NCBI GenBank assembly: GCA_022704305.1
Contig: JAKJGQ010000001.1
Span: forward strand, 16,779 to 80,778
From: Thermotogota bacterium
Lineage (GTDB): Bacteria > Thermotogota > Thermotogae > Petrotogales > Petrotogaceae
Reading direction: 5' to 3'
DNA: 64,000 bases
Below the pieces are notes generated by a model that was given only the letters and a program-made list of their open reading frames with translations, did not search any database and was not told the origin of the DNA. Made by a program: the position numbers and the translations under genes. Shown here piece by piece: positions 7,031 to 38,553 of the stretch; within the stretch, counting starts at the first letter, position 1, and the number at the start of each line of letters is the position of its first letter.

Positions 7031-8502
7031 TACTTTTTTACAGCATTGGTTTTACTTTTTATACTTAAAAATATTGAAAAAGCTATAAACACAATAATAA
7101 CTATACTTATCGGCTTGAGGAAAGTACCTGTTATCAGTTCTCTTACTGAACCGCTTAAAGATAAAGCTCTACGGAAGTTAGAGTCCATCATCTCTCCTAG
7201 AACAATTCCTAAGACCATAGCCGCAGTAGAAAAGCCAGTTCTTCGCATAAAAAATCCAATAACTCCAAAAACTGTCATTATAGATACCTCATAAAGACTC
7301 GAATTTACAGAATATGCTCCGATTATACATAGAATAGCTATTAAAGGAAGCATTATTTTTTTAGGTACCAGAACTACTTTTGATAATACCGGTATAAAAA
7401 GAAATCCCAAAACAATAATGAAAAAGGATCCTATCAATGTTGATAAGACAATGAGTTCAAATGCCTGAGGATTTTCTTTTATAAAAAGCGGTCCAGGTCT
7501 TAAGCCATGAACATAAAAAGCAGAAAGCATTACAGCTGTTACTGCATCACCTGGTATTCCAAGAGTAAGCATAGGTACAAGGGCTCCTCCTATACAGGCA
7601 TTATTGGCGCTTTCACTGGCAGCTATACCCTCAGGAGCACCTTGTCCAAAAGGTATTTTTGGTTTTCTTGCATACTTCTTTGCACTGTCATAAGCCAAAA
7701 GAGAAGCAACTGGAGCACCAGCTCCGGGAAGAATACCTATTATAGTTCCTATAGCGCTAGATATCAAAGATATTTTCCAGTATTTTAATATCTCCTTAAA
7801 AGAAACTTTTTCATTGTTATTTAATATGGAGATTTGAGAACTGGCTTGAGATGAGATCTGCTCTAGTACTTCGGAAAAACCAAACAAGCCAATCAGAACA
7901 GGAACAATAGGAATTCCCATCTGAAGATTCAGCGAGCCGAATGTAAATCTTGGAACTCCCATAATAGAGTCAATTCCAACCATGCTGATCATAACTCCAA
8001 TAAAAGCACTTATATGACCTTTTAGAATACTTTTTGAAGTGAGTGAACCTACTGTCGTAAGGCCAAAAAAAGCAAGAAGAAAGTAATCTATCGGCGAAAA
8101 TGAGAGTGCAATTTTTGATAGTGGCTTAGCAATAAGCGAAAGAACAATTAAACCAAATACTGTTCCGATAAAAGAATATACAGTTGCAATCCAAAGAGCC
8201 TTTTTAGAGTTACCATTGCAGCTCATAGGAAATCCATCAAATGATGTTGCCACAGATGCTGGTGTACCCGGTATATTGACAAGTATGGAAGTTATTGCAC
8301 CTGAATATACGCCCACAACGTATACTCCTATAATCAGAGCAATGGCATCATAAAAAGGCCATGAATAAGTAACAGATAAGAGCAATGCGGTTGCCATTGT
8401 TACTGACAAACCCGGAAGTGCTCCTATAATAAGTCCTATTAAAGATCCTGAAAATAAAATAAGCAGAAAGCGCAAATTAAAAACTGATAAAAAATAATCC
8501 AC
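7030..8502 (-). CDS. tctA: tripartite tricarboxylate transporter, large permease TctA
   Basis: 490 aa polytopic membrane protein with TctA-family length and glycine-rich TM blocks. It lies in a tctC-tctB-tctA order on the minus strand. Confidence 0.8.
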   Translation of the reverse strand: MDYFLSVFNLRFLLILFSGSLIGLIIGALPGLSVTMATALLLSVTYSWPFYDAIALIIGVYVVGVYSGAITSILVNIPGTPASVATSFDGFPMSCNGNSKKALWIATVYSFIGTVFGLIVLSLIAKPLSKIALSFSPIDYFLLAFFGLTTVGSLTSKSILKGHISAFIGVMISMVGIDSIMGVPRFTFGSLNLQMGIPIVPVLIGLFGFSEVLEQISSQASSQISILNNNEKVSFKEILKYWKISLISSAIGTIIGILPGAGAPVASLLAYDSAKKYARKPKIPFGQGAPEGIAASESANNACIGGALVPMLTLGIPGDAVTAVMLSAFYVHGLRPGPLFIKENPQAFELIVLSTLIGSFFIIVLGFLFIPVLSKVVLVPKKIMLPLIAILCIIGAYSVNSSLYEVSIMTVFGVIGFFMRRTGFSTAAMVLGIVLGEMMDSNFRRALSLSGSVRELITGTFLKPISIVIIVFIAFSIFLSIKSKTNAVKK

Positions 8503-10015: not shown

Positions 10016-11200
10016 TTATTTGTGCATTAGCACATCAGAAAACTTGATGATAAGAACATCACTTAAGTCTGCTCCGAAATCTTTTGAATCAGAATAACCA
10101 ACCATATAAATATCTCCGTTCTCTGTTATGTCCAAGGAATAAACAACATCTCTTCCTTTACCACCTATAGCTTTGCTATAGATCTCATTGCCATCTTTAT
10201 CGTATACTAAAAGAACCGCATCAACATTATTGGTTTTGGTATTAGTAACGTAACCACCTATGTACATATTTCCATTTTTACTTATCTTTATTGAATAACC
10301 ATGATCAGAACCTTTCTGACCAAATGTCTTTTCCCACAAAAGATCACCTTTCCAGGAAAACTTAACTACGTAAATATCAGAAAAACCTGCACCATTAAGA
10401 TCTCCAGTATAACCGACAACATAATACTCATCGTTAAATTCTTTTACTTCAAAAGCCCTGCCATAACTCTGACCTGTGAAAACCTTTGACCATATTTCAT
10501 TTGCTTCGAAGTCAGTTTTTACTACATAAAGACTTGATATACCAGTATCATAATCAAACACAACTCCAGAAATGACAAATCCGTCAGCTACTTTTTCTAT
10601 ACCTAAAGGCTTTACATCTTTAAAAGTATCTGCTCCCGAAAGCCATCTGTACCATATTACATTTCCAGCATCCTTGTCTACTTTCACCATGTAACCTTTG
10701 TAATTAGAATTGTTTTTATCATAAGGATCCTGGGCATATCCAACAATAATATAACCATCTTCTACGTCTACTCCTGCGCTAGCTTTATCGTTTCCTAATT
10801 TGGGAATGTATGTCTCCCAGTAAACAGGACTTACTTTTGCTAGATAGTAATCAAAGTCATCAGAAAAAGAGTTAGTTGCACCAACTAATACCATATCTTT
10901 CCTTGAATCTTGAAAAGCCCATAAAGCCCAATCTGAATATGCTCCTCCAAACTCACTCTTAGATACAAGATTTCCAAATCTATCAAATTTCAATGCTATG
11001 GCATTCTCATTATTGCCTGTCTCATTAGAAGATCCTATTGCATAAAATCCATCGTCTGTAGCTTTCACATAAAAGATTTCTTGAATTCCGGGCATTTGAT
11101 ATACTCTGCCCCAATCCATTTGCGGAACTGCAAAAGAAACTAAGGCAACTAAAATAACAAAAAAAGTTATAATCTTTAGTTTCACATTTATCCCTCCCAT
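10016..11200 (-). CDS. secreted beta-propeller repeat protein (function unknown)
   Basis: Signal peptide or TM at the N-terminus, then about 7 recurring 40-50 aa units with the pattern G-x-S...D-x-Y-x-V-K...G-x-x-x-W...FG (SBBP-like beta-propeller repeats). Confidence 0.55.
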   Translation of the reverse strand: MGGINVKLKIITFFVILVALVSFAVPQMDWGRVYQMPGIQEIFYVKATDDGFYAIGSSNETGNNENAIALKFDRFGNLVSKSEFGGAYSDWALWAFQDSRKDMVLVGATNSFSDDFDYYLAKVSPVYWETYIPKLGNDKASAGVDVEDGYIIVGYAQDPYDKNNSNYKGYMVKVDKDAGNVIWYRWLSGADTFKDVKPLGIEKVADGFVISGVVFDYDTGISSLYVVKTDFEANEIWSKVFTGQSYGRAFEVKEFNDEYYVVGYTGDLNGAGFSDIYVVKFSWKGDLLWEKTFGQKGSDHGYSIKISKNGNMYIGGYVTNTKTNNVDAVLLVYDKDGNEIYSKAIGGKGRDVVYSLDITENGDIYMVGYSDSKDFGADLSDVLIIKFSDVLMHK

Positions 11201-16200: not shown

Positions 16201-16213
16201 AAGCTATCCCCTT

Positions 16214-16921
16214 TTATTCAAGGGGATAGTTTTTTTGTAGTCTTTCATACTCGTAATTTATGGAACTTAACACATAAAGTGCAGCAGTTTCAAATCTAAA
16301 AACAGTATTTCCCAAATTCACTACAGAAAAAAAGGTTTCATGGAAGAATTTCTTTTCATTTTGGGAAAAGCCTGTATCGGGGCCAAAAACTATATTCAAT
16401 GAATTCAACTTCTTTTTAAGTTCTTCTTTTAAAGAGCTTGTTCCTTGGAAATCAAAAACAAGTGTATTTTTTAAAGGAATATCCTTTATGTTTATAAAAG
16501 AAAACTTAGGAAAATTACATAAAAAAGATTGTTTTGAGCTTTCTGCAATCAACTTCAGAAATTTTTTTTGATCATCGTACTTAAAAGTAGACTTTTCACC
16601 GTTAAAAACGAATATTGAACTTACTCTGTGTTCCACAGCTTTTTCAATAAGCATTTGCATCCTATCCCATTTTGAAGCACCAATAAAAAGGTTTATTTCC
16701 GGAAGAAAGGAACAATGTATATTCTTTATCTTGAGTATTTTGAGATCGGCTGTTTTCTTGTTTATTTTTATTACGATACACTCAAAAAGCTTACCTTTCC
16801 CATCAGTTACATTGATTACTTCGTTTTCTCTTACCCGTACGGATCGGAGATGAGCACATTCTTCTTCGTTTAGGCAAGCATACTCTCCGCTGAATGAATC
16901 AAGCAAGAAAACATTAGGCAT
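16214..16921 (-). CDS. rsmE: 16S rRNA (uracil1498-N3)-methyltransferase RsmE
   Basis: RsmE-length protein (235 aa) with a PUA-like N-terminus and a SPOUT C-terminal knot region. Confidence 0.7.
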   Translation of the reverse strand: MPNVFLLDSFSGEYACLNEEECAHLRSVRVRENEVINVTDGKGKLFECIVIKINKKTADLKILKIKNIHCSFLPEINLFIGASKWDRMQMLIEKAVEHRVSSIFVFNGEKSTFKYDDQKKFLKLIAESSKQSFLCNFPKFSFINIKDIPLKNTLVFDFQGTSSLKEELKKKLNSLNIVFGPDTGFSQNEKKFFHETFFSVVNLGNTVFRFETAALYVLSSINYEYERLQKNYPLE

Positions 16922-16925
16922 ACTT

Positions 16926-18200
16926 TTATCCTATATACTCTTTTTTCATATATGGAATAAGTACATCCGGAACTTTGACTTTTCCATCAGAAGTCTGATA
17001 ATTTTCAACTATTGCAACGAGAGTTCGTCCGATAGCAAGCCCTGAACCGTTAAGAGTGTGAACGTACTTAAGTTTGTTATCTTTATCCCTGAACCTTATA
17101 TTTCCTCTGCGTGCCTGAAAATCACCGTCATTAGAACATGAGGATATTTCTTTATAAGAATTGTAGCTTGGCAACCATACTTCAATATCGTAAGTTCTGC
17201 TAGCCCCAAATCCAAGATCTCCGCTACACAAACGTATAACTCTGTATGGAAGTTCAAGCAATTTTAAAACTTTTTCGGCATGCGATGTAAGAGTTTCGAG
17301 ATCTTCAGCCGATCTTTCAGGAGTTGTATGCCATACAAGCTCAACTTTATCAAACTGATGCTGGCGTATTACTCCCCTTACATCTTTACCGTAGCTTCCT
17401 GCCTCACGTCTGTAACATGGAGAATAGCCGCAGTACTTTGCCGGCAGATCCTTCAGTTCAAGTATCTCGTCCCTGTGCATGCCTACCAATGCCACTTCAG
17501 ATGTAGGAATAAGAAAAAGGTCATCCCCTTTTGTGTTATAAAGGTCTTCTTCAAACTTTGGAAGCTGTCCGGTAGCTGTTATAGTTTCTCTTAAGACCAT
17601 ATGTGGAGGCAGTACTTCAGTATAACCATGCTCCGTTGAGTGAAGATCCATCATGAATGCCCCGAGTGATCTTTCTAATCTAGCAAAATCGCCTTTCATA
17701 ATTGTAAACCTAGATCCTGAAAGTTTGGAACCTCTGTCAAAATCAAGTCCGTTTAATTCACTGCCAATTTCCCAGTGTGGTTTGGGTTCAAAATCAAATT
17801 TTCTTGGGATACCAATTCTTCTGATTTCTGGGTTGAACGTTTCATCCTTTCCAATGGGAGTATCCTCATCGTATACATTAGGAATATAAAGAAGTTTCTG
17901 CATGTACTGTTCATCAATCTGTTTCAATTGAGCTTCCAGCTCTTCTGACTGTTGATTAAGAATTTTTCCGTTTTCAATATTCTGGCGGAGTGCTTCTTCG
18001 TCGCCTTGTGCTTTTAATCTTGCAACTGCCTTGGAGTTTGTATTTTTAAGAGATCGTATTTCTTCAACTTTTTTGAGGATATCACGTCTTTTTTCATCAA
18101 GAGCAACTAACTCATCAAGAATCAAGGTTGAAGAATTTCTGTTTATAAGGCAGTTTCGTATCTTTTCAATGTTAGTTCTTACAAACTTCATATCAAGCAT
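16926..18200 (-). CDS. serS: seryl-tRNA synthetase
   Basis: N-terminal coiled-coil tRNA-binding arm and class II aaRS motifs (motif 2 FRxE, motif 3 GxGxGxxR: GLAIGRTLVAI). Confidence 0.9.
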   Translation of the reverse strand: MLDMKFVRTNIEKIRNCLINRNSSTLILDELVALDEKRRDILKKVEEIRSLKNTNSKAVARLKAQGDEEALRQNIENGKILNQQSEELEAQLKQIDEQYMQKLLYIPNVYDEDTPIGKDETFNPEIRRIGIPRKFDFEPKPHWEIGSELNGLDFDRGSKLSGSRFTIMKGDFARLERSLGAFMMDLHSTEHGYTEVLPPHMVLRETITATGQLPKFEEDLYNTKGDDLFLIPTSEVALVGMHRDEILELKDLPAKYCGYSPCYRREAGSYGKDVRGVIRQHQFDKVELVWHTTPERSAEDLETLTSHAEKVLKLLELPYRVIRLCSGDLGFGASRTYDIEVWLPSYNSYKEISSCSNDGDFQARRGNIRFRDKDNKLKYVHTLNGSGLAIGRTLVAIVENYQTSDGKVKVPDVLIPYMKKEYIG

Positions 18201-18219
18201 AAATAAGTCCTCCTAAATA

Positions 18220-18843
18220 TTATTTGTTTTCTTTTACTTCCAGTGTCAGGTTTATTCCTTCTGCTTTCATTTCATTTGTATCAGTTCTGAAAGTCGAGTT
18301 CTGTGTTTTAAGATCTATTTTTTTGGCATCGTTTTTTATCCGTACATCTCCGTTAAGTACAAGAATCTTGGTAGTTTCATTGTAAGAAAAGTTTTTTGCT
18401 GAAATCACATAATCTTCTTTTAATATTTTGACTAAATCATTTGAGGAACCAGTATAATTCTTTTCTTTATTATTAAATTCAAGAACATCACACGAGATGT
18501 AAAGATCTTTTTTATCAACTAAAATCTTTACGGATACTTTTTTCGAAAGCTGACCTTTTTCTGTGCTCAGATCAAATTTAAAAAATTCTGCTGATGCGTT
18601 TAAGGTTGATGTTTTTATGGTTGTTGCTGAGCATACCATATCTCGCCAATCATCGTCCAACTGGGTAATAGTTGCTACTTCAGTCATCATGGTAAGATCT
18701 GATTTTTTTATTACAACATTATCTTTTAAGACATGCTGCTTATCGCCCAAAGTTCCAAATCTAGAGCTGACCGAAATCTGGCTTTGAGAAAAAACAATAC
18801 TAAAAGATAATAATAAAATAAAAAATAGAATAATTTTCTTCAT
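18220..18843 (-). CDS. secreted LptC/OstA-N-like beta-jellyroll protein
   Basis: Signal peptide, then repeated beta-strand motifs typical of LptA/LptC/OstA_N domains (VLKDNVVIKKSD; VLNGDVRIKNDAKKIDLKT). Start overlaps the upstream gene by 4 nt. Confidence 0.5.
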   Translation of the reverse strand: MKKIILFFILLLSFSIVFSQSQISVSSRFGTLGDKQHVLKDNVVIKKSDLTMMTEVATITQLDDDWRDMVCSATTIKTSTLNASAEFFKFDLSTEKGQLSKKVSVKILVDKKDLYISCDVLEFNNKEKNYTGSSNDLVKILKEDYVISAKNFSYNETTKILVLNGDVRIKNDAKKIDLKTQNSTFRTDTNEMKAEGINLTLEVKENK

Positions 18844-19616
18844 AATTCAAGTTTTCCCTCCATATATTTTTGACATGTTTTCATTCCATCATAAAAGGCT
18901 ACACTATCCAATGGATCTTCCAATGGACTTTCACAAGTTATTAGTTCAATATCTTTGCTTATGATCCTGAACAATTCTCTTGTACGTGCGTAAGAAATTT
19001 TTAAAAGTATCTCGGCAGCATTCATTGCTCTGGATACAGAGCCACCCGCTTCATAAGAAATTATCAGTCCGTCTGGAGAGAGATTGTATGGTGAAAGACA
19101 GATATATGAAGAAGGAATTAAAAACATATCGGATAGTTCAGTATATCTATAATACGGTAGTATCGATAATTCAGATAAAAGAACCTGAGAAATCCTAGTT
19201 TTTCTATTAAGTAGGAAAAAATTTCCTGTTTTTATGTCAAAAACTTCAAAATCAACTCTATGCTTAAGCTTTTCTATAGTCAAAGTGCCAAAATGTGAGT
19301 CAAGATATTTAGAAAAAGTAGTCTGATTTTTAAGTTCAAGACCAGATGTACCAAGCTTCAAAAGAGTTATTGCCTGTTGATATCTGCTGGAGAAAAGATC
19401 TGAGTCGATAAGCGGTTTAATAGGATTATCTTTTTCCTCAATAAATTCTTTTAAATACTTATAAAAATTTTTTCCATGCATGCCATAAAAAAATCCTATA
19501 AGACTGGAAGCACCACTTACAGTTAACTCTATATTATTATCGTGCATAAGGATATTACTAAGAGCTCCGCTATCCCATACTATACCCTCAAAAAGGCCTC
19601 CCATGAAAATTTTCAT
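18840..19616 (-). CDS. hypothetical protein, possibly a degenerate patatin-like paralog
   Basis: Glycine-rich N-terminus (FMGGLFEG), VSGASSL where patatins have G-x-S-x-G, and a D-G-L near the C-terminus where patatins have D-G-A/G. It overlaps both neighbouring genes by 4 nt. The assignment is weak. Confidence 0.4.
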   Translation of the reverse strand: MKIFMGGLFEGIVWDSGALSNILMHDNNIELTVSGASSLIGFFYGMHGKNFYKYLKEFIEEKDNPIKPLIDSDLFSSRYQQAITLLKLGTSGLELKNQTTFSKYLDSHFGTLTIEKLKHRVDFEVFDIKTGNFFLLNRKTRISQVLLSELSILPYYRYTELSDMFLIPSSYICLSPYNLSPDGLIISYEAGGSVSRAMNAAEILLKISYARTRELFRIISKDIELITCESPLEDPLDSVAFYDGMKTCQKYMEGKLEL

Positions 19617-20410
19617 GTTATATCACGGCTGTATACTCTTTTAGCCTTCCTGTATATTTCAAAATACTTATCAAAATCATACCATTCAACTTTATCATAA
19701 AAAGAATAAACTTCATTAGCTGTATCAAGTTCGTTTTTAGTAATTAAAGCTGTTTTAAGAGAATCTATATAATTCATATAATCCATTCCATCAGAGAATG
19801 TATCTTTAAGTATAACCGGATTTATGTCATTAGCAATTATGTACTCTCCACCCAATTTTTTAGCCAAAAAAACAGGTACTTCAGAAATTGCTCCTCCGTC
19901 TACTAGATCCATGCCTCCCAGTCTCATTGGGGGAAAAGCTCCCGGAACATTTGAAGATGCCATTATGGCATCAATAAGATACCCCTCTGTTATTTCAACT
20001 AAGCGTTCAGAATTTATATCAAAGGCTACTACTCCAAACTTGATCTTACAATCTGAAAACCTTTTTTTACCGTATATCTGTTTTAAAATATCATATACTA
20101 GATCATTCTGGGCTATTCCTCTTGAATAAAGAAGCCTTTTAAAGGAGTTTACTTTTGATGATAGAGCGTTGCTTAAATCAATAAACTTCAGGGAATTTTT
20201 TTTAATTATAGCCTCAAAATCTTTCAGGAACTCATTTTTTGAAGGATTTAAAGCATAAACGCCTCCGACAACTGATCCGGCACTACAGCCTGTGACAATG
20301 TCGAATTTTATGTTCCTTTTTCTCACAATCTCACTGATGAGGGCAATATGTGCAATTCCTTTTACTCCTCCGCTTCCAAGTGCAAGAGCGTTTATCATTA
20401 CTTCCTCCAT
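19613..20410 (-). CDS. patatin-like phospholipase (lipid acyl hydrolase)
   Basis: All three patatin motifs are present: glycine-rich oxyanion loop LGSGGVKG, nucleophile elbow GCSAG (G-x-S-x-G), and the catalytic Asp in MDLVDGG. Confidence 0.85.
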   Translation of the reverse strand: MEEVMINALALGSGGVKGIAHIALISEIVRKRNIKFDIVTGCSAGSVVGGVYALNPSKNEFLKDFEAIIKKNSLKFIDLSNALSSKVNSFKRLLYSRGIAQNDLVYDILKQIYGKKRFSDCKIKFGVVAFDINSERLVEITEGYLIDAIMASSNVPGAFPPMRLGGMDLVDGGAISEVPVFLAKKLGGEYIIANDINPVILKDTFSDGMDYMNYIDSLKTALITKNELDTANEVYSFYDKVEWYDFDKYFEIYRKAKRVYSRDIT

Positions 20411-20413
20411 TTT

Positions 20414-22534
20414 TTACAGAGAAGGACTCAGTAAAAAGTAGGTTATCAGAGCTCCTACCGCTACTCCAAGTACTCCCGAAATGGTTGAGGACCAAAAAAT
20501 ATCTTGATTAGGCTTTTGTAGTTCTGATATCTGCTTTTCCATCTCTGTGACTTTTAATGAAAGCTCGGAAGATGCCGTAACTTTCTGAACTGATAATTCA
20601 ATATCTGCTACTTCTTTTTTTGATGCTTTTTCTGCATTTATTTCGTTGTATTTTGAACTAAGTGAAAAAACTGTTTTTTTGATATCAGACATATCGGATT
20701 GCAATTTAATTAGTTCTGATGCAAGGTCAGAAGAGAGCTCACGTTTGATTTCTGTTTTCATACTGCTTAAATCAACTGTTTCGGCAATCTTAGTAGTCTC
20801 AGGAGATACAGTTTGATTTTTAAGCAGTATATAAGATTTTACTAAAAAATCATAATCTTCTTTTAATTTCTGTATTTCATTTTTATTAATTTCTGAAACA
20901 AGGGAGTTGCTCTGTTTCAAAAGATCAGAATTATAAATGAGTTCCAATTTATTTTGATTTTCATAAACAAGAGAAGAAAGATCCTCTAACTTTTTTTCAC
21001 TTTCTCCGACTCTTTTAGCTATAGAGGCAACATTTCCAATAGTATTCAAAGTATCTTTATCAAGTTTTATAAGTGATGAAAGCGAGTTTATCTGAGATTC
21101 AACAGAGTCTGTTCTCAACAAAAGCTTCTGTATACTTTCATTTTGTGCACTCTGGGTTTTTTCTGAAATTTTGAACTTTTCGTCATACTCATTGGCTTTA
21201 ATAGTATATATATATAGCTGAGAGAGCTTATCAGAGTACATGTTAATATATTCCTGCATAAGTCTTACTTCCTGCTGCAAGTTGACAAAATCATTTTTAA
21301 GGACATAATCAGTTATACTTGAAGGTATAGATTGGTTTGAAGTTGCTTTTATATTTTCAAGCATCTGACGGAGTTCTCCAACAAAAGAATTAACATCTGA
21401 ATTTTTGCTTTCTAACTCAGAAAGTTTTCTTGTAAAATACTCGTTTCTATTATCATATGTGTCTATAAATGCATTTATGTACTCAACTCTGTTATTAAGG
21501 TTATCATAAAGAGTTTTGGTATCCTTAATGTCGTTAGCAAGAGATTGAGTGTCTTTTTTAATTATAAGCAGTTCCTTATCATTTTGTACAGTACTTTGAA
21601 ACGCCGGAACTGTTTCTTTTGATTCCAGATAGACAAGTCGTGAGATAATATCGTTAAAACGTTTTTCATATTGATTCTGTCCGGAGTACTCAAGAGCAGC
21701 TATACGATCTCTCAAAGTGCTCAAAGTTGCTTCTGCCGTCTGATTGTAAAATCCTATGTGACTGTTGACAATATTTCTTAAAGCTACTTTCATTCCTTCC
21801 ATCTCACTGTCAAGCCTTTGTTTGGCATAATCGTTAAGTTGCTGACGATTTTTTTCTTCATATTGAGCAAAAAGAAAACTTATAGAATCAGTTGTTTTGT
21901 CAAGCTTTTCTTCTATTCTTAATAGTTCTGATTGAAAGAGATCGACCTTTTTATTTGACTGTTCTGAAAAAGACATAAGAGTTTTAAGGTAGGAATCGGC
22001 TGTTTTTTTCGCTGTGTCATTTGCAATAGCCGCGGCATTGTCCAAAATTACTTTAAATATTGCACTATCCGTATCAAGCGGCCCATCTATGTTCATAAAT
22101 TTTTCAAGTGCCTCTACTCTGGATTTCTGCTGAGCTATATCACTGTTCAATCCCGAAATCTTTGAATCAATTTTTTTCTCCATAGATATTATTTTACTGT
22201 CATAGTTGTAAAGAGTTGTCTCTATATTGTTTATACGGTTTTCGAGACTTTCAGTATCAATCTGGGATATTCTTTTTTCAAAATCATCGAAGCTGCTAGA
22301 GTACTTTTTATCAAGGTAATCTATAAGATTTGCTCCGAAAAAGGCAATATCAAATCTCATGACGTTTGATGAGCCATTGAATCTTCCCTGACTGTCCAGT
22401 TCAAGAAGACCATCAGTTACCATACGTACAACTTGTGAATAGTATGGAGAAGAAGGTTTAAGGTCACGTATTTCTAACGAAAATACCGGAATAGAGACAA
22501 AAATAAAAATAAATACAAGGAAAAATTTTCTCAT
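20414..22534 (-). CDS. Ompα-like envelope anchor: N-terminal SLH-like domain, about 550 aa coiled-coil rod, C-terminal transmembrane helix
   Basis: Signal peptide, then an SLH-like segment (DLKPSSPYYSQVVRMVTDGLLELDSQGRFNGSSNVMRFDIAFF). A long heptad-rich Q/E/K/L region follows, and the protein ends in a hydrophobic anchor ISGVLGVAVGALITYFLL. Confidence 0.65.
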   Translation of the reverse strand: MRKFFLVFIFIFVSIPVFSLEIRDLKPSSPYYSQVVRMVTDGLLELDSQGRFNGSSNVMRFDIAFFGANLIDYLDKKYSSSFDDFEKRISQIDTESLENRINNIETTLYNYDSKIISMEKKIDSKISGLNSDIAQQKSRVEALEKFMNIDGPLDTDSAIFKVILDNAAAIANDTAKKTADSYLKTLMSFSEQSNKKVDLFQSELLRIEEKLDKTTDSISFLFAQYEEKNRQQLNDYAKQRLDSEMEGMKVALRNIVNSHIGFYNQTAEATLSTLRDRIAALEYSGQNQYEKRFNDIISRLVYLESKETVPAFQSTVQNDKELLIIKKDTQSLANDIKDTKTLYDNLNNRVEYINAFIDTYDNRNEYFTRKLSELESKNSDVNSFVGELRQMLENIKATSNQSIPSSITDYVLKNDFVNLQQEVRLMQEYINMYSDKLSQLYIYTIKANEYDEKFKISEKTQSAQNESIQKLLLRTDSVESQINSLSSLIKLDKDTLNTIGNVASIAKRVGESEKKLEDLSSLVYENQNKLELIYNSDLLKQSNSLVSEINKNEIQKLKEDYDFLVKSYILLKNQTVSPETTKIAETVDLSSMKTEIKRELSSDLASELIKLQSDMSDIKKTVFSLSSKYNEINAEKASKKEVADIELSVQKVTASSELSLKVTEMEKQISELQKPNQDIFWSSTISGVLGVAVGALITYFLLSPSL

Positions 22535-22548
22535 CTTTATACCTCCGT

Positions 22549-24264
22549 TTACTTTAAAACAGCAAGATCGTCAATGAAAAGGGACTGAGCAGCGTCAATA
22601 TATATTACAAACTTTATACCTTTGGTTTCTATTACATGAGGTCCTTTTGAAACGTATACTATAAACTGTGACGGTGGATAAATTACTCCGTCAATTTTAT
22701 ACTCTCCTGAAGAATAAGGCCTTATGGGAATTTTATCTTCAAATATAAAGTTAAGATTTTTAACTTCCTGGTCAGCTATATCTATTTTTTCAGTTTTTTC
22801 GATATTCTGATATTTTACTGTCACAGTATGCCGTCCTGTAGACAAAGGATAGCCAAAAACGCCAAAGTATCCAATAAGTTGGTTGTCAATATATATAAGA
22901 GTACCGTCGACATTGTTTATTATATTTACAAAACCATATCCAGGTGAATCGATTATAAGAACGTTAGTTTTTCCAGACTCTGCAGAAATATTGTATTTTT
23001 TTGTAAGACTTTCAAACTGAAAAGTCTGTGTTTTAGAGATAATATTTGCAATAAATTGTGCAGGTACGGTACTTATCTCATTTTGATAAGAGATACTCTT
23101 TTTTTCTGAAGAGTAAAGATTCATAACCGTTATTTTGTTTATATCAATGATCTTCGGAGCTTTCTGGTCAAGCTTTATACCAAGCAGATCCGAAGTATTT
23201 TTGCTGTATATCTGAAGAAAATGTTCCTTTTTATCGGCAACTATAAAAGAAATGCCTGAACCAAGGTTTATTCCGTCAAGAAACACTTCAGCATTTTCTG
23301 CGTTAAGAAGTTTGAAAGTCCTTATATCTTCTTCCAAACTTACAGTATAACTTATCTGAGGAGTGGCCTCACTTATATTTGCAGAAAGCTTCTTAGGAGT
23401 ATAAAGAGCTTTTGATACCGTAAATAGATGATTTCCCATAGGAATCTGTGCGGTAAACGGAGTTATTCCAAGATACTCATTATTCAATGTAACTAAAGCT
23501 CCTGAAGGCTCTGAAGAAAAAAGCACAGCGCAAGCTTTGGTCATTGTAAATATATAATCGTTTGTTTTAGAGTCAGTTTTAAAACTGAAATCCATATATC
23601 CAGGTGCTTTTAGTATAATATCCTTTCCCTCCAGCAAAGTTAAAGCCGTCGCATAAGGAGTAGTGCCCAGATTTTTTGAGCCTACAAAAATGCTTGCATC
23701 AGAAGGTATGGAAGATATATATGCAAAGTCAGTTCTTTTAAGTGTAACAGACAGCTTGTTTTCATAAAAAGGTTTTAAGTCAATTGTAACTGTTTGGGAA
23801 AGATACCCTGCTTGCTCTATCTTCAATTCTCTTATTGTAGAGGGCAGGTAAGTTTGGGTATCGTTAATAACTTTCTGGCGTATATTATTATTGTTGAACA
23901 TATAATTTATATAGAAACTGTCACTATTCGTTTTAATGTTGAGAATACTTAGCGGGACCTGTAAAGCTGAAATCTCTAACTTTGAACCTTTGGTACCGGA
24001 AATATCCAATGAATAATCTGAATATCCAGGTTTTTTAACTTCCAGCTTATGGGTTGTATCTGACAGATCTATGTTGTATACGGACTTTTCAATGATTTTT
24101 TTAAAAATTCCGTCTATAAATACTGAACTTCCTTCTAAACCAGAAAGAGTAAGCGTAAATGAAAAAGATAATATGTATGCCAAAAGAATAAAAACCGTTA
24201 AAAAGAGTCTTTTACCGATATTCCCCACTCTTAACCACCTCTTTGATTGTTTTTTGTAGCTCAC
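22549..24264 (-). CDS. secreted/membrane-anchored protein with about six PEGA domains
   Basis: N-terminal TM or signal segment plus repeated PEGA-like units, for example SIFVGSKNLGTTPY...APGY, VTLNNEYLGITPF and VFLDGINLGSG. Confidence 0.65.
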   Translation of the reverse strand: MSYKKQSKRWLRVGNIGKRLFLTVFILLAYILSFSFTLTLSGLEGSSVFIDGIFKKIIEKSVYNIDLSDTTHKLEVKKPGYSDYSLDISGTKGSKLEISALQVPLSILNIKTNSDSFYINYMFNNNNIRQKVINDTQTYLPSTIRELKIEQAGYLSQTVTIDLKPFYENKLSVTLKRTDFAYISSIPSDASIFVGSKNLGTTPYATALTLLEGKDIILKAPGYMDFSFKTDSKTNDYIFTMTKACAVLFSSEPSGALVTLNNEYLGITPFTAQIPMGNHLFTVSKALYTPKKLSANISEATPQISYTVSLEEDIRTFKLLNAENAEVFLDGINLGSGISFIVADKKEHFLQIYSKNTSDLLGIKLDQKAPKIIDINKITVMNLYSSEKKSISYQNEISTVPAQFIANIISKTQTFQFESLTKKYNISAESGKTNVLIIDSPGYGFVNIINNVDGTLIYIDNQLIGYFGVFGYPLSTGRHTVTVKYQNIEKTEKIDIADQEVKNLNFIFEDKIPIRPYSSGEYKIDGVIYPPSQFIVYVSKGPHVIETKGIKFVIYIDAAQSLFIDDLAVLK

Positions 24265-24655
24265 TTAATTTTTCTATAAGTTCTTTTTCATTTCCCAACC
24301 TATCGATAACTGATTGCATAACTTCTACTCTTTTTTTGATTACTTTGGTAATAAGTTCTCTTCCAGAATCGGTAAGTTTGATCCTATATACTCTTTTGTC
24401 TTCCTCTGACTGCTCCCTGTCCAAAAAATAAAGTATTTCCAGTCTTTTTATTAGACCAGTTGTAGTGCTTTTGGTTACTCCGAGATTTTTACTTATTTCG
24501 CTTAACTTTTTCTCTCCGTCGAAGTATAATAGTTGTAATACATCAAATTGAGCAGGAGAAATGTCGTAATCTTTCAGAACTTTCCTTCCAGCTGCCCTGA
24601 TGTGGAAACAGATCGACCTTAAAATGCTTTCCATATTTTCTGCGTTCTTGTACAT
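24212..24655 (-). CDS. MarR-family transcriptional regulator
   Basis: Winged-HTH MarR signature (LSEISKNLGVTKSTTTGLIKRLE), 147 aa; first gene of the minus-strand block. Confidence 0.85.
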   Translation of the reverse strand: MYKNAENMESILRSICFHIRAAGRKVLKDYDISPAQFDVLQLLYFDGEKKLSEISKNLGVTKSTTTGLIKRLEILYFLDREQSEEDKRVYRIKLTDSGRELITKVIKKRVEVMQSVIDRLGNEKELIEKLSELQKTIKEVVKSGEYR

Positions 24656-24691
24656 TTTGATACCTCCCCGAGTTTTAAAATTATTATTATC

Positions 24692-24726
24692 ACAAATTAC
24701 AAGAATTTGTAGTAAAATAATTACAA
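24692..24726. promoter_or_regulatory. Overlapping palindromes ACAAATT-N5-AATTTGT and TTGTA-N10-TACAA (candidate MarR operator)
   Basis: Perfect inverted repeats in the divergent marR / membrane-protein intergenic region, overlapping a TACAAT -10-like element. Confidence 0.5.
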
Positions 24727-24767
24727 TATACAGCTATTCTATCATAAAATTCTGGAGGAACAAAGAA

Positions 24768-25244
24768 ATGAGTAAAAATATAACCATTACAGCTATGCTT
24801 TCTGTGCTAACTATAATACTTTTTTCATGTCAGATGTTTATTCCTGTGGTAGGAATCTTCGTTGCATATTTTTCTATTATTCCACTTATGTTCATATATG
24901 AAATGACTAATGCTAAATATTTTTTTATGTCGCTTATTACATGCATATCTATGGTTATGATTCTGAATGATCCTTTTGGATGGATTTTCTTTGATCTGCT
25001 TCTGGTTCCGCCCGCAATTACAACTGTAACAAAAAACAAAATTCTTAAGTTGATAATGATTGTTCCTATAGAGATAGGTTTTCTTCTTTTATTTAAGATA
25101 CTTGTAGTAAATGGTTCAAAAATTGATATGATTTTATCAAATATATGGTATATACTTGGTATACTGTTTTATTTCGCAGGAACTTTCTTTTATCGTAAAG
25201 CTTTTTTGATATCAAAGATGCTACTGAAAAAAATAAACTACTAA
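24768..25244 (+). CDS. small polytopic membrane protein (unknown function)
   Basis: 4-5 predicted TM helices. ATG at 24768 with GGAGG about 9 nt upstream. The track ORF 24600.. is an N-terminal over-extension that overlaps marR. Confidence 0.55.
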   Translation: MSKNITITAMLSVLTIILFSCQMFIPVVGIFVAYFSIIPLMFIYEMTNAKYFFMSLITCISMVMILNDPFGWIFFDLLLVPPAITTVTKNKILKLIMIVPIEIGFLLLFKILVVNGSKIDMILSNIWYILGILFYFAGTFFYRKAFLISKMLLKKINY

Positions 25245-35501: not shown

Positions 35502-36506
35502 CTATATTTCTGTGTTTGAAAGAGCCGCAACAAGTTTTACTGTATTTTTAACATCATCCATGCTGACCATTTCGTTGGGAGAATGGACATATCTTGTTGT
35601 TATTGAGATTGTACCTGAAGGAATACCGGACTTAGTACGTTGATAACTGGCAGCATTCGTTCCTCCAAAAAGAAGAACTTCAAACTGGAAAGGAATCATG
35701 TTTGCCTGAGCGGCCTGCTTAAGTTTATTTACTACACTAATATCACTTACACTGGCAGCATCTTTGATCTTTATGCAAGGTCCCTTTCCTAGTTCCATAC
35801 TTATACGCTTAAGTGCTTTTGGAGTATCTCCTGCAGCAGTAACGTCTACAGCAACAGCCATATCAATATCATAATTGAAACCGGCAACGCTCGAACCTAC
35901 TAATCCAACCTCTTCCTGTACCGTAAATGCATAAATAATGTTATTCAGACTATCTTTCATGTTTCTGATGCTTTCTATAAGTACGGCACATGCAACCCTG
36001 TCATCCATGGCTTTGGAGACAATCCTATCTCCAAGGTCTGCAAAGCAAGCCGTATATGTACCAAACGTTCCTATAGGAGCAAACTCCTCAGCTTGTGTTC
36101 TACAGGAAAAGCCCAGATCAAGAAAAAGATTTTCAAATGAAAGATTTTTTGAGTTGTTTTTAAGATCTTCCATAGTTTCACCTTCAACTCCAAGCACTCC
36201 AGTTCTGTTTTTAAACTGTACTCTGCATCCGATAAGAGTTTGAGGATCAACACCTCCAACTGCTTCAACTTTATAAAATCCTTTGTCAGTAATATGAGTT
36301 ATTACAAGACCTATTTCATCCATATGAGCATCGAAAAGAATAGTTTTTCCCGATCTTCCTTTTTTAAAAGCAATTAAATTTCCAATTTTATCAATCTTAT
36401 AATCATCAACATAATCTTTTATCTGTGAAATAATAAAGTTCCTTACCTCATCTTCCCGTCCACTTGGAGAATATATTTCTGTTATATTTTTAATTAGCTC
36501 TTTCAT
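35502..36506 (-). CDS. M42-family (TET-type) aminopeptidase, paralog 3
   Basis: M42 metal ligands (HMDEIG, ...EEVG...) and a FrvX-like fold. Third of three tandem paralogs. Confidence 0.8.
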   Translation of the reverse strand: MKELIKNITEIYSPSGREDEVRNFIISQIKDYVDDYKIDKIGNLIAFKKGRSGKTILFDAHMDEIGLVITHITDKGFYKVEAVGGVDPQTLIGCRVQFKNRTGVLGVEGETMEDLKNNSKNLSFENLFLDLGFSCRTQAEEFAPIGTFGTYTACFADLGDRIVSKAMDDRVACAVLIESIRNMKDSLNNIIYAFTVQEEVGLVGSSVAGFNYDIDMAVAVDVTAAGDTPKALKRISMELGKGPCIKIKDAASVSDISVVNKLKQAAQANMIPFQFEVLLFGGTNAASYQRTKSGIPSGTISITTRYVHSPNEMVSMDDVKNTVKLVAALSNTEI

Positions 36507-37534
36507 TATTTTAAAATCCTCCCTTCAACCGATATTATTTTTATAAGTTCAACAACTGAATTATAGTCATTTTTGTTTATTATGCTGTTTGCTGAATGAA
36601 TATAACGGCAAGGAGTCGATATTACGGCACAAGGAATACCATCAACTGTTCTTGTAAGTCTTGCCGCATCTGTACCTCCAGCGGTTCTCATTTTAAACTG
36701 ATGCTTTATATTGTTCTTTTTCGATGTCTCTACAAGATATTCAAATATTCTTTTGTCAAGAACAACTCCACTGTGCATGAATGTAAGAACTGCTCCGTCA
36801 CCCAGATGAGTTGCCCAGCTGGTTTTTTCAAGTTCCGGATTATCCCCGGCTGTTGTGCCTTCTAAAATAACCGCAACATCTGGCTGTATAGAAAAACCAG
36901 CTACGCCGCTGCCTCTAAGACCAGTTTCTTCTTGTACAACAAAAGCAAAGTAGGTATCATAAAATGGTTTTTTCGATTCCGAGTCAAAAAAATCAATCAG
37001 ATCCATCATGGCGCTACAGCCACACCTATCGTCAAAAGCTTTGCATACGGCATACTCATTATTTTCATAGTATTTAACGTCAAAAGTGACCATATCACCG
37101 ATTTTTACTTTTAATTTAGCCTCATCTTTATTTTTAAATCCGGCGTAGGCCTTAATTGAATCGTATCCGGTCACAGCCGTAAGATTGTGGTCAAGATGAA
37201 TAGGAGTTGAGTTAAGTATTGCAACTATCTCGTCATTTATTTTAAGCCTCTGAGCTTTTAACACCCTTGGATCAACTCCACCTACCTGTGCCACACCTAA
37301 AGTTCCGTCATCGTATATCTTAGTTACCATAAGACCAACTTCATCCATATGCGCTGCAAACATTATTTTTTTGGAAGAATCATTGCCCTTTTTAAATGCA
37401 ATAAGATTTCCAACATTATCTACAGAAACGGAATCTACTTTGTCTTGTATATTTTTTTTGATGAACTGCATTACCTTTTCTTCTTTTCCAGATATTCCAG
37501 AAATTTCAACAAGTTCCTTAAGATATTTTTGCAT
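36506..37534 (-). CDS. M42-family (TET-type) aminopeptidase, paralog 2
   Basis: HMDEVG, QEETG and related M42 motifs. Its start codon is shared with or abuts the stop of the upstream paralog. Confidence 0.8.
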   Translation of the reverse strand: MQKYLKELVEISGISGKEEKVMQFIKKNIQDKVDSVSVDNVGNLIAFKKGNDSSKKIMFAAHMDEVGLMVTKIYDDGTLGVAQVGGVDPRVLKAQRLKINDEIVAILNSTPIHLDHNLTAVTGYDSIKAYAGFKNKDEAKLKVKIGDMVTFDVKYYENNEYAVCKAFDDRCGCSAMMDLIDFFDSESKKPFYDTYFAFVVQEETGLRGSGVAGFSIQPDVAVILEGTTAGDNPELEKTSWATHLGDGAVLTFMHSGVVLDKRIFEYLVETSKKNNIKHQFKMRTAGGTDAARLTRTVDGIPCAVISTPCRYIHSANSIINKNDYNSVVELIKIISVEGRILK

Positions 37535-37536
37535 TC

Positions 37537-38553
37537 TTATCTCCCCGCTTTTGAAGCAAAGATAGCCAATAATCTTGCTGTATTATCTATGTCTTGTATA
37601 GAAACAGTTTCAACAGGTGAATGCATATTTAAAAGAGGTATAGAAATCAATCCTGTTTTAATGCCGTTCCGCGCAAGTTGAACTACATCTGCTTCAGTAC
37701 CACTTGAACCGGGTACAGCTTCTATCTGGTACTGTATGTTATTTTCCTGAGCCAATGAACTTATCTGTTCAAAAACGGATGGGGTTATGGGAGCGCCGAC
37801 GGCTACTACCGGACCATCACCCAGTTTATATGTTTCAAAATTAGGGTTGTTTTCTGATGCAAAAGTTACATCGACCACAATGGCATAGTCAGGATTTACT
37901 TCATAACTCATGCCTTTAGCACCTATAAGCCCTATTTCTTCACCTTTATTGAAGCATAGTACAAGCTGACCATCAAATTTAAGGTCGCTCAGATAATCAA
38001 TGCTTCTCATTAATGCAGCTACACCAGCCCTGTTATCAAGAGCTTTTGATGTAAGCTTATCTCCCTGCATCTCAGCAGCAAAAACTTCCAAAGTTCCCAT
38101 ATCTCCAACTTGAAGGTCTTTGGTTCCTCCCGATACAGAAAAATCAACAAAAATCTGATCAAAAGAAGGAGATTTGTCCTTTGTGGAAGGAGCTTGCAGA
38201 TGTGGGGCAAGCATACCGATTATACCAAGTTTGTTTCCAGAAGCTGTTCTGAAAATAACTCTTTTGGCAAGAAGAGTTCTGGGGTCAACTCCGCCAACAC
38301 CTGCTACCCGTGCATAATTTGAGTCTGTTATTTTGCTTATAACAAGTCCAATCTCATCAGTATGGGCAAAAAAAGCAACTTTCTTACTTCCATTTCCCAT
38401 TTTTACTAAAAGACTTCCTGTACCTTTTCTTTCATAAGTAAGGTTTTGGTAATTTTCTCGGAGTATCTTTTCTATGACTTTGAAGGTTTCTTCTTCATGT
38501 CCTGATACACCGAAGGAATCTGTGAGTTCTTTTAATAGCTCGATAGTTTTCAT
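37537..38553 (-). CDS. M42-family (TET-type) aminopeptidase, paralog 1
   Basis: HTDEIG, KGEEIG and related M42 motifs. Confidence 0.8.
   Translation of the reverse strand: MKTIELLKELTDSFGVSGHEEETFKVIEKILRENYQNLTYERKGTGSLLVKMGNGSKKVAFFAHTDEIGLVISKITDSNYARVAGVGGVDPRTLLAKRVIFRTASGNKLGIIGMLAPHLQAPSTKDKSPSFDQIFVDFSVSGGTKDLQVGDMGTLEVFAAEMQGDKLTSKALDNRAGVAALMRSIDYLSDLKFDGQLVLCFNKGEEIGLIGAKGMSYEVNPDYAIVVDVTFASENNPNFETYKLGDGPVVAVGAPITPSVFEQISSLAQENNIQYQIEAVPGSSGTEADVVQLARNGIKTGLISIPLLNMHSPVETVSIQDIDNTARLLAIFASKAGR

Follow-up and report, generated by a model that had tools for sequence, protein, structure and literature searches.

A putative double-length Ompα-type envelope tether encoded in a conserved gene cluster of the Petrotogaceae

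The toga is the defining structure of the Thermotogota, and the way in which it is attached has been used in arguments on the origin of the outer membrane. The closest described systems to the one considered here are the Ompα proteins of Thermotoga maritima. Petrus et al. (PMC3387000) defined OmpA1 (TM0477, encoded in a secG-tyrS-ompA-ompB context) and OmpA2 (TM1729), reported for Ompα a rod of 316 residues and ~45-50 nm, and listed Pmob_0057 and Pmob_1624 as the OmpA homologs of Petrotoga mobilis. Sexton et al. (PMC10160955) described three toga-enriched Ompα homologs of ~45 kDa and ~50 nm in T. maritima, predicted to form trimers, and located homologs throughout the phylum by requiring a match to the S-layer homology (SLH) family PF00395. 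Ompα co-purifies with the toga, and fibres of ~50 nm are seen between peptidoglycan and toga (PMC3387000; PMC10160955). Here we describe a 706-residue protein encoded in a 64,000-nucleotide stretch of a Petrotogaceae metagenome-assembled genome (MAG; Thermotogota bacterium, GenBank assembly GCA_022704305.1, contig JAKJGQ010000001.1, positions 16,779 to 80,778; hereafter the window), which has a G+C content of ~34%. Comparative analysis identifies this protein as a lengthened (~twofold), Petrotogaceae-specific form of a known kind of tether, encoded in a previously undescribed operon association.

A preliminary description of the window, made from its letters alone, had proposed for this gene a signal peptide, an SLH-like segment, a helical rod and one C-terminal transmembrane (TM) helix, and hydropathy, profile comparisons and the helix content of AlphaFold2 (AF2) models bear out this architecture. 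The features of the gene and its product are as follows.

20414 to 22534, minus strand: predicted long Ompα-type tether, ortholog of Pmob_0017 (open reading frame and family comparison)
22542 to 22546, minus strand: strong Shine-Dalgarno sequence GGAGG, 7 nt 5' of the ATG and 3 nt past the stop of the preceding gene, which encodes a PEGA-domain protein
22478 to 22534, minus strand: Sec-type signal peptide, residues 1-19, MRKFFLVFIFIFVSIPVFS, with the inferred cleavage site before LE (hydropathy, family conservation)
22310 to 22477, minus strand: divergent single SLH domain, residues 20-75 (profile searches; direct PF00395 scan negative)
20510 to 22297, minus strand: alpha-helical, segmented coiled-coil rod, residues ~80-675 (DSSP on the AF2 model, register scan)
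22070 to 22096, minus strand: Pro/Gly break in the rod, residues ~147-155 (conserved in eight of nine family representatives)
21029 to 21043, minus strand: second family-conserved Gly break, residues ~498-502, T-I-G-N-V (family alignment)
20426 to 20500, minus strand: C-terminal TM helix, residues 679-703 (hydropathy, conserved motif)

The open reading frame (ORF) is complete and starts with ATG, and translational coupling to the PEGA gene is plausible. Its product contains no Cys, one Trp, nine Pro and 15 Gly, is rich in S, L, K, I, E, D and N, and is strongly hydrophobic only at residues 1-25 and 679-706. The signal peptide, assigned from hydropathy and family conservation and present across the family, lacks a lipobox Cys, with the predicted cleavage falling between SIPVFS and LEIRD. 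The C-terminal segment (residues 679-706; Kyte-Doolittle hydropathy > 1.6) holds a single TM helix with a conserved small-xxx-small motif (G-V-L-G-V-A-V-G-A), preceded by a conserved K-P and followed by an uncharged tail of 3-5 residues. Several short Ompα-type proteins share a C-terminal motif resembling G..[IV]T[WY]F.LSS, to which the end of the 706-residue protein is similar. No C-terminal beta-barrel porin domain is present in this protein, which is helical throughout and ends in that single helix of 25 residues.

Identical or near-identical proteins (89-100% identity, all of 706 aa) fall into more than 50 clusters drawn from MAGs labelled Petrotogaceae, and these, together with eight further representatives of the same architecture at 24-29% identity, make a chance ORF unlikely: the 706-aa ORF is genuine and conserved. 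The nine representatives at the 50% identity level that carry the SLH module at residues ~20-95 range from 672 to 770 aa and are colinear from signal peptide to TM helix, with 24-29% identity. Members with a genus name belong to Petrotoga, Oceanotoga, Marinitoga and Tepiditoga, all of them Petrotogaceae, and every lineage of this family of bacteria carries the protein. The P. mobilis member is Pmob_0017 (686 aa), which constitutes a third Ompα-type gene in that species, absent from the published OmpA list (PMC3387000).

Automatic names for the family clash, including "chromosome segregation ATPase" (Joint Genome Institute, JGI), "predicted nucleic acid-binding Zn-ribbon protein", "TolA-binding protein", "S-layer domain protein" and "hypothetical protein". 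The JGI label on some members, and sub-threshold matches to the generic coiled-coil families DUF7310 and ASRP, the only ones returned by Pfam and NCBIfam scans of the full protein, would fit an unrelated coiled coil that mimics the Ompα layout, such as a structural maintenance of chromosomes (SMC)-like ATPase, a cytoskeletal filament or a phage tail or tape-measure protein. Against this stand the lack of any ATPase or phage domain in Pfam and NCBIfam scans, the signal peptide and TM helix, the SLH homology and a conserved chromosomal housekeeping context near dnaA, with no phage genes. We regard such an origin as highly improbable, and the SMC-like, cytoskeletal and phage-tail readings are discarded on domain content, secretion signals and chromosomal context. 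The SMC-like and phage-tail families, which the preliminary description had named as possible refutations, thus find no counterpart in the domain scans.

The assignment of the N-terminal module derives from profile comparison. The SLH segment follows the pattern DLKPSSPYY..VVRMV..GLL.LD..GRFNGS..VMRFDIA, and a profile built from three sequences over residues 20-95 was used in a HMMER search of 1.84 billion representative proteins. The nine long-family representatives were returned first, followed by typical three-SLH and single-SLH proteins; among these more distant matches, 43 of 47 belong to PF00395 (best E=2e-47). Five of the nine long-family representatives themselves match PF00395 weakly (best E=9e-4), and the Petrotoga copies are named "SLH domain-containing protein" or "S-layer domain protein" in UniRef. 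Against PDB sequences, the three best matches of the profile are SLH domains of Veillonella OmpM (8bz2, 8bys and 8bym), with the match to 8bz2 (E=0.002) running end to end over ~50 aligned residues; a phmmer search of PDB sequences with the full-length protein returned nothing meaningful. On these profile comparisons, the N-terminal module is a genuine but divergent SLH domain. A contig of a spirochaete, a Treponema sp. MAG, also encodes, at 8001-8294, an N-terminal module that matches residues 20-130 of the protein at 33% identity (E=2e-5), and this SLH subtype may hence occur outside the Thermotogota.

The same profile also recovers shorter proteins of 241-557 aa from Thermotoga, Kosmotoga and unclassified Thermotogota MAGs, which present the same layout of signal peptide, one SLH domain, helical rod and C-terminal TM helix. 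Aligned by hhalign, the long family and the short proteins match at 99.9% probability (E=6.8e-35) over the signal peptide, the SLH domain and the first coil, so that the N-terminal ~125 residues of the long protein are homologous to Ompα-type proteins, as represented in T. maritima by Ompα/OmpA1 (TM0477), OmpA2 (TM1729) and Ompα3. The relationship extends to gene order. The gene is the third of eight in a run on the minus strand (16214-24655) in which genes are separated by no more than 19 nt or overlap slightly, in the order marR-PEGA-tether-patatin-patatin-like-OstA/LptA-like-serS-rsmE. Its other members are given below.

24212 to 24655, minus strand: MarR-family regulator, first gene of the cluster (Pfam/NCBIfam)
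22549 to 24264, minus strand: 571-aa protein carrying at least three PEGA domains and, at residues ~16-43, an N-terminal signal-anchor (Pfam)
19613 to 20410, minus strand: patatin-like phospholipase with intact GCSAG and DGG and no signal peptide (Pfam, motifs)
18840 to 19616, minus strand: degenerate patatin-like paralog without GxSxG and DG[AG] (Pfam, motifs)
18220 to 18843, minus strand: secreted OstA/LptA/LptC-like beta-jellyroll protein, 207 aa (Pfam/NCBIfam)
16214 to 18200, minus strand: serS and rsmE, final genes of the cluster (annotation)
16204 to 16229, minus strand: terminator-like hairpin with a 10-bp stem directly after rsmE, the only strong one on this strand in the region

All eight genes keep this order in Oceanotoga, Marinitoga, Tepiditoga and four MAG loci, where the long protein shows 25-30% identity. 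Together with the PEGA protein it is the fastest-evolving component, at 24-31% identity versus 61-66% for the seryl-tRNA synthetase. The PEGA gene lies immediately 5' of the tether gene in both long-rod and short-rod lineages: short-rod loci with the order marR-PEGA-tether encode tethers of 478 and 429 aa, and loci with PEGA-tether encode tethers of 557 and 355 aa. In a Thermotoga sp., the order marR-tether-patatin-patatin-like-OstA-like surrounds a 406-aa "S-layer homology domain-containing protein". Between long and short loci, orthology of the flanking genes is evident for patatin (38% identity, E=1e-56), for the OstA-like protein (25%, E=9e-14, in the match to the Thermotoga sp. protein) and for the PEGA protein (21% over its full length, E=4e-11). 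Since its patatin and OstA-like neighbours have orthologs there, gene order places the 706-residue protein as the positional ortholog of the 406-aa Thermotoga sp. SLH protein, and homology and synteny together mark it as a positional ortholog, with a lengthened rod, of one specific Ompα-type paralog. This paralog is not OmpA1: the gene lies next to neither an ompβ-type barrel gene nor secG-tyrS, being accompanied instead by marR, PEGA, patatin, OstA-like and serS genes, and the lack of ompA1-type synteny therefore excludes orthology with OmpA1, still allowing membership in the wider Ompα class. The Ompα design put forward in the preliminary description is accordingly upheld by the N-terminal homology and by the positional orthology.

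The same description had put the protein at almost twice the length of Ompα, which is also the case: 706 aa compare with ~400 aa (~45 kDa), and a rod of 614 residues, counted between the SLH motif and the TM helix, compares with 316 in T. maritima Ompα and an essentially equal 314 in the Thermotoga sp. ortholog. At 0.1485 nm per residue, an upper bound that applies to a fully extended rod, it could reach up to ~90 nm, against 45-50 nm for Ompα. The periplasm of T. maritima measures ~70 nm. Across the long family, rods measure 578-679 residues (mean 604, coefficient of variation 3.9%), with extended upper bounds of 86-101 nm. Because rod length is kept so tightly at ~25% sequence identity, it would appear to be under selection, the signature of a spacer or ruler, and length conservation hence favours a length-dependent role.

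The rod itself is helical but segmented. The full-length AF2 monomer, taken for secondary structure only, contains ~90% helix by DSSP, with helix breaks at residues 147-155, 306-319, 400-407, 486-492 and 573-589. A register-based heptad/hendecad scan, in which positions above the 95th percentile of shuffled sequence were scored as positive (5% expected), marked 57-67% of the central region as positive, in seven blocks (residues 88-150, 191-231, 319-401, 410-443, 458-533, 595-644 and 652-680); residues 151-190, 232-318 and 534-594 are helical but without heptad signal. The ~550 residues of heptad-rich sequence initially reported were thus right as to a signal far above chance, but overstated its continuity and regularity. 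Family-conserved Pro/Gly positions are only three, at ~150, at ~500 and in the K-P before the TM helix. No internal repeats or tandem duplications of rod segments were found (hhalign probability no higher than 76%, Smith-Waterman z mostly below 2). The rules for coiled-coil cores associate Ile at the a and d positions with trimers; Ile is common at both positions in family members, which is weakly compatible with a trimeric rod.

Taken together, we propose that the protein is an Ompα-class tether of the envelope that spans the periplasm, with its SLH domain at the wall, an extended stalk and its C-terminal helix in the toga, a reading to which we assign a probability of about 0.65. After Sec export and signal-peptide cleavage, the SLH domain would join those of its sister chains in a common head, which would bind peptidoglycan itself or a polymer linked to it. 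Given that the single-SLH tethers OmpM, SlpA and Ompα are trimeric, the homo-oligomer is by analogy likely to be a trimer. The ~600-residue helical region would form a parallel, segmented coiled-coil stalk of up to ~86-91 nm when extended, with hinges near residues 150 and 500, and the glycine-zipper-like TM helix would hold the far end of the stalk in the toga, embedded in patches of lipid or packed against the beta-barrel proteins of the sheath. Its probable working partner is the multi-PEGA protein, which is membrane-anchored and encoded by the gene directly upstream.

The proposed arrangement resembles that of the SlpA/OmpM superfamily (Deinococcus SlpA, Veillonella OmpM), in which a single N-terminal SLH domain is likewise followed by a coiled coil that spans the periplasm and ties the outer layer to the wall. 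Unlike in those proteins, the distal anchor here is one TM helix, the "bipartite" arrangement described for Thermotogae (PMC10160955). The likeness to the Braun lipoprotein Lpp of Escherichia coli and Salmonella is by analogy only, with no sequence relationship. Lpp is a trimeric coiled coil that links wall and outer membrane, and, as experiments in which it was lengthened indicate, its length sets periplasmic width; unlike the protein described here, it is a 58-residue lipoprotein bound covalently to peptidoglycan. Conservation of rod length in the long family is what an Lpp-like ruler would show, and a wider periplasm, or a role for the protein as a candidate ruler, is plausible.

Several observations weigh against the tether reading. 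At the N-terminus, neither Pfam nor NCBIfam scans detected PF00395 in the protein (gathering threshold, 20.8 bits), even at E<=10 on the isolated N-terminal segment, so that the SLH-like segment of the preliminary description is borne out by profile methods but not by direct family assignment. Searched against the PDB with Foldseek, the AF2 model of this module (pLDDT, the predicted local distance difference test, of 76) had no significant match, and the OmpM1 SLH domain ranked seventh (E=1.3), a weak result that is unsurprising because the SLH domain folds as part of a trimer. Moreover, the TRAE-type ligand-binding motif, which reads T-R-[YF]-[DE] in short orthologs, is M-R-F-D in this protein and [MPLI]-[RK]-[FY]-D in the long family as a whole. 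The motif thus retains its basic and acidic residues, but wall binding may be altered, given that the Thr is replaced and that the Arg has become Lys in two lineages. The sub-threshold SLH domain, the lost Thr and the interrupted rod all set the protein apart from Ompα.

A second set of observations concerns the conformation of the rod. The full-length AF2 model is rendered unreliable by its low confidence (pLDDT 40), and among 11 relatives examined with the same register scan the protein has the lowest heptad coverage (58%, against 78-97% for proteins of canonical size and 73-95% for other members of the long family). The Pro/Gly breaks could, in addition, let the rod fold back. A member of the same protein family whose helices fold at the conserved breaks would form a bundle in which the extra residues add thickness, rigidity or binding surface, for instance for the PEGA protein, instead of span. 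The family-conserved breaks at ~150 and ~500, the further local breaks, the 58% coverage and the three helical segments devoid of heptad signal are all in line with such a bundle. However, the conserved breaks divide the rod into segments of widely differing length (~60, ~340 and ~170 residues), which makes a poor fit to a simple hairpin or bundle, and the absence of internal repeats, the tightly conserved total length and the high coiled-coil coverage of the other family members also argue against it. We therefore consider a folded-back rod unlikely.

Orientation presents a third difficulty. A Sec-type signal combined with a single C-terminal hydrophobic helix is the textbook topology of a membrane-anchored periplasmic protein, and normally leaves the protein in the cytoplasmic membrane. 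With the C-terminal helix acting as a stop-transfer segment, the rod would point outward, the SLH domain would grip the wall from below and the protein would serve, instead of anchoring the toga, as a membrane-to-wall strut or scaffold beside the PEGA protein, a conserved partner that itself bears an N-terminal signal-anchor; the operon also encodes the cytoplasmic patatin enzymes. This inverted anchoring nonetheless seems improbable to us. The short C-terminal side of the TM helix lacks positive residues, and a rod of ~90 nm far exceeds the gap between membrane and wall unless it is folded. Furthermore, the homologous Ompα proteins are toga-enriched, and the ~50 nm fibres run between peptidoglycan and toga (PMC3387000; PMC10160955). 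The toga localisation of the long family is extrapolated from these T. maritima homologs (PMC10160955). Lastly, Petrotoga possesses two other OmpA homologs, so that the general spacing of the toga need not be set by the protein described here even if it is a tether.

The gene neighbourhood suggests a broader context for the proposed tether. The degenerate patatin-like gene is kept in every long-family locus, and its product may be a pseudo-enzyme that pairs with the intact patatin (19613-20410). To our knowledge, the Thermotogota are a phylum without classical lipopolysaccharide. The OstA/LptA-like protein may be linked to the Lpt-like transport of lipids to the toga that has been proposed (PMC10160955), and the cluster as a whole looks like an undescribed envelope (toga) module joining the tether with lipid-handling proteins. 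Neither PEGA nor patatin partners are mentioned in PMC3387000 or PMC10160955. A fuller and distinctly tentative scenario, which we hold to be possible but rather doubtful, is that in the Petrotogaceae one Ompα paralog was doubled in length and held at ~600 residues, to act as a molecular ruler or long-range strut that sets ~85-90 nm between toga and wall, whether in general or only locally, for example at the ballooning poles. Within a hitherto unrecognised toga-maintenance operon, its partners in building or supplying the sheath would be the multi-PEGA protein of the inner membrane, the phospholipase pair and a secreted lipid-bridge protein of the LptA/OstA type.

Published catalogues hold two or three ~45 kDa tethers per species, found through a match to the SLH Pfam family. 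Because its direct PF00395 scan is negative, the protein described here would not be picked up in the screen of PMC10160955, which starts from PF00395, and Petrotoga, Marinitoga, Oceanotoga and Tepiditoga carry an additional double-length predicted tether that can be overlooked in this way. Throughout the phylum, its orthologs are associated with a PEGA protein, with patatin lipases and with a protein resembling LptA, all of which become candidate partners in toga biogenesis. In addition, the natural length series at one locus, with rods from 170 to 680 residues, could be used to test the relation between coiled-coil length and periplasmic width in a deep-branching diderm.

The window is origin-proximal, with dnaA at 1197-2567 on the plus strand, and the low locus number of Pmob_0017 agrees with this proximity. 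Next to the cluster and divergent from marR, a 214-aa multi-TM ORF without a Pfam family lies at 24600-25244 on the plus strand. A 394-aa ORF at 10016-11200 on the minus strand likewise falls in no Pfam family, and three tandem paralogs of an M42 (TET/FrvX-type) glutamyl aminopeptidase occupy 35502-38553, also on the minus strand.

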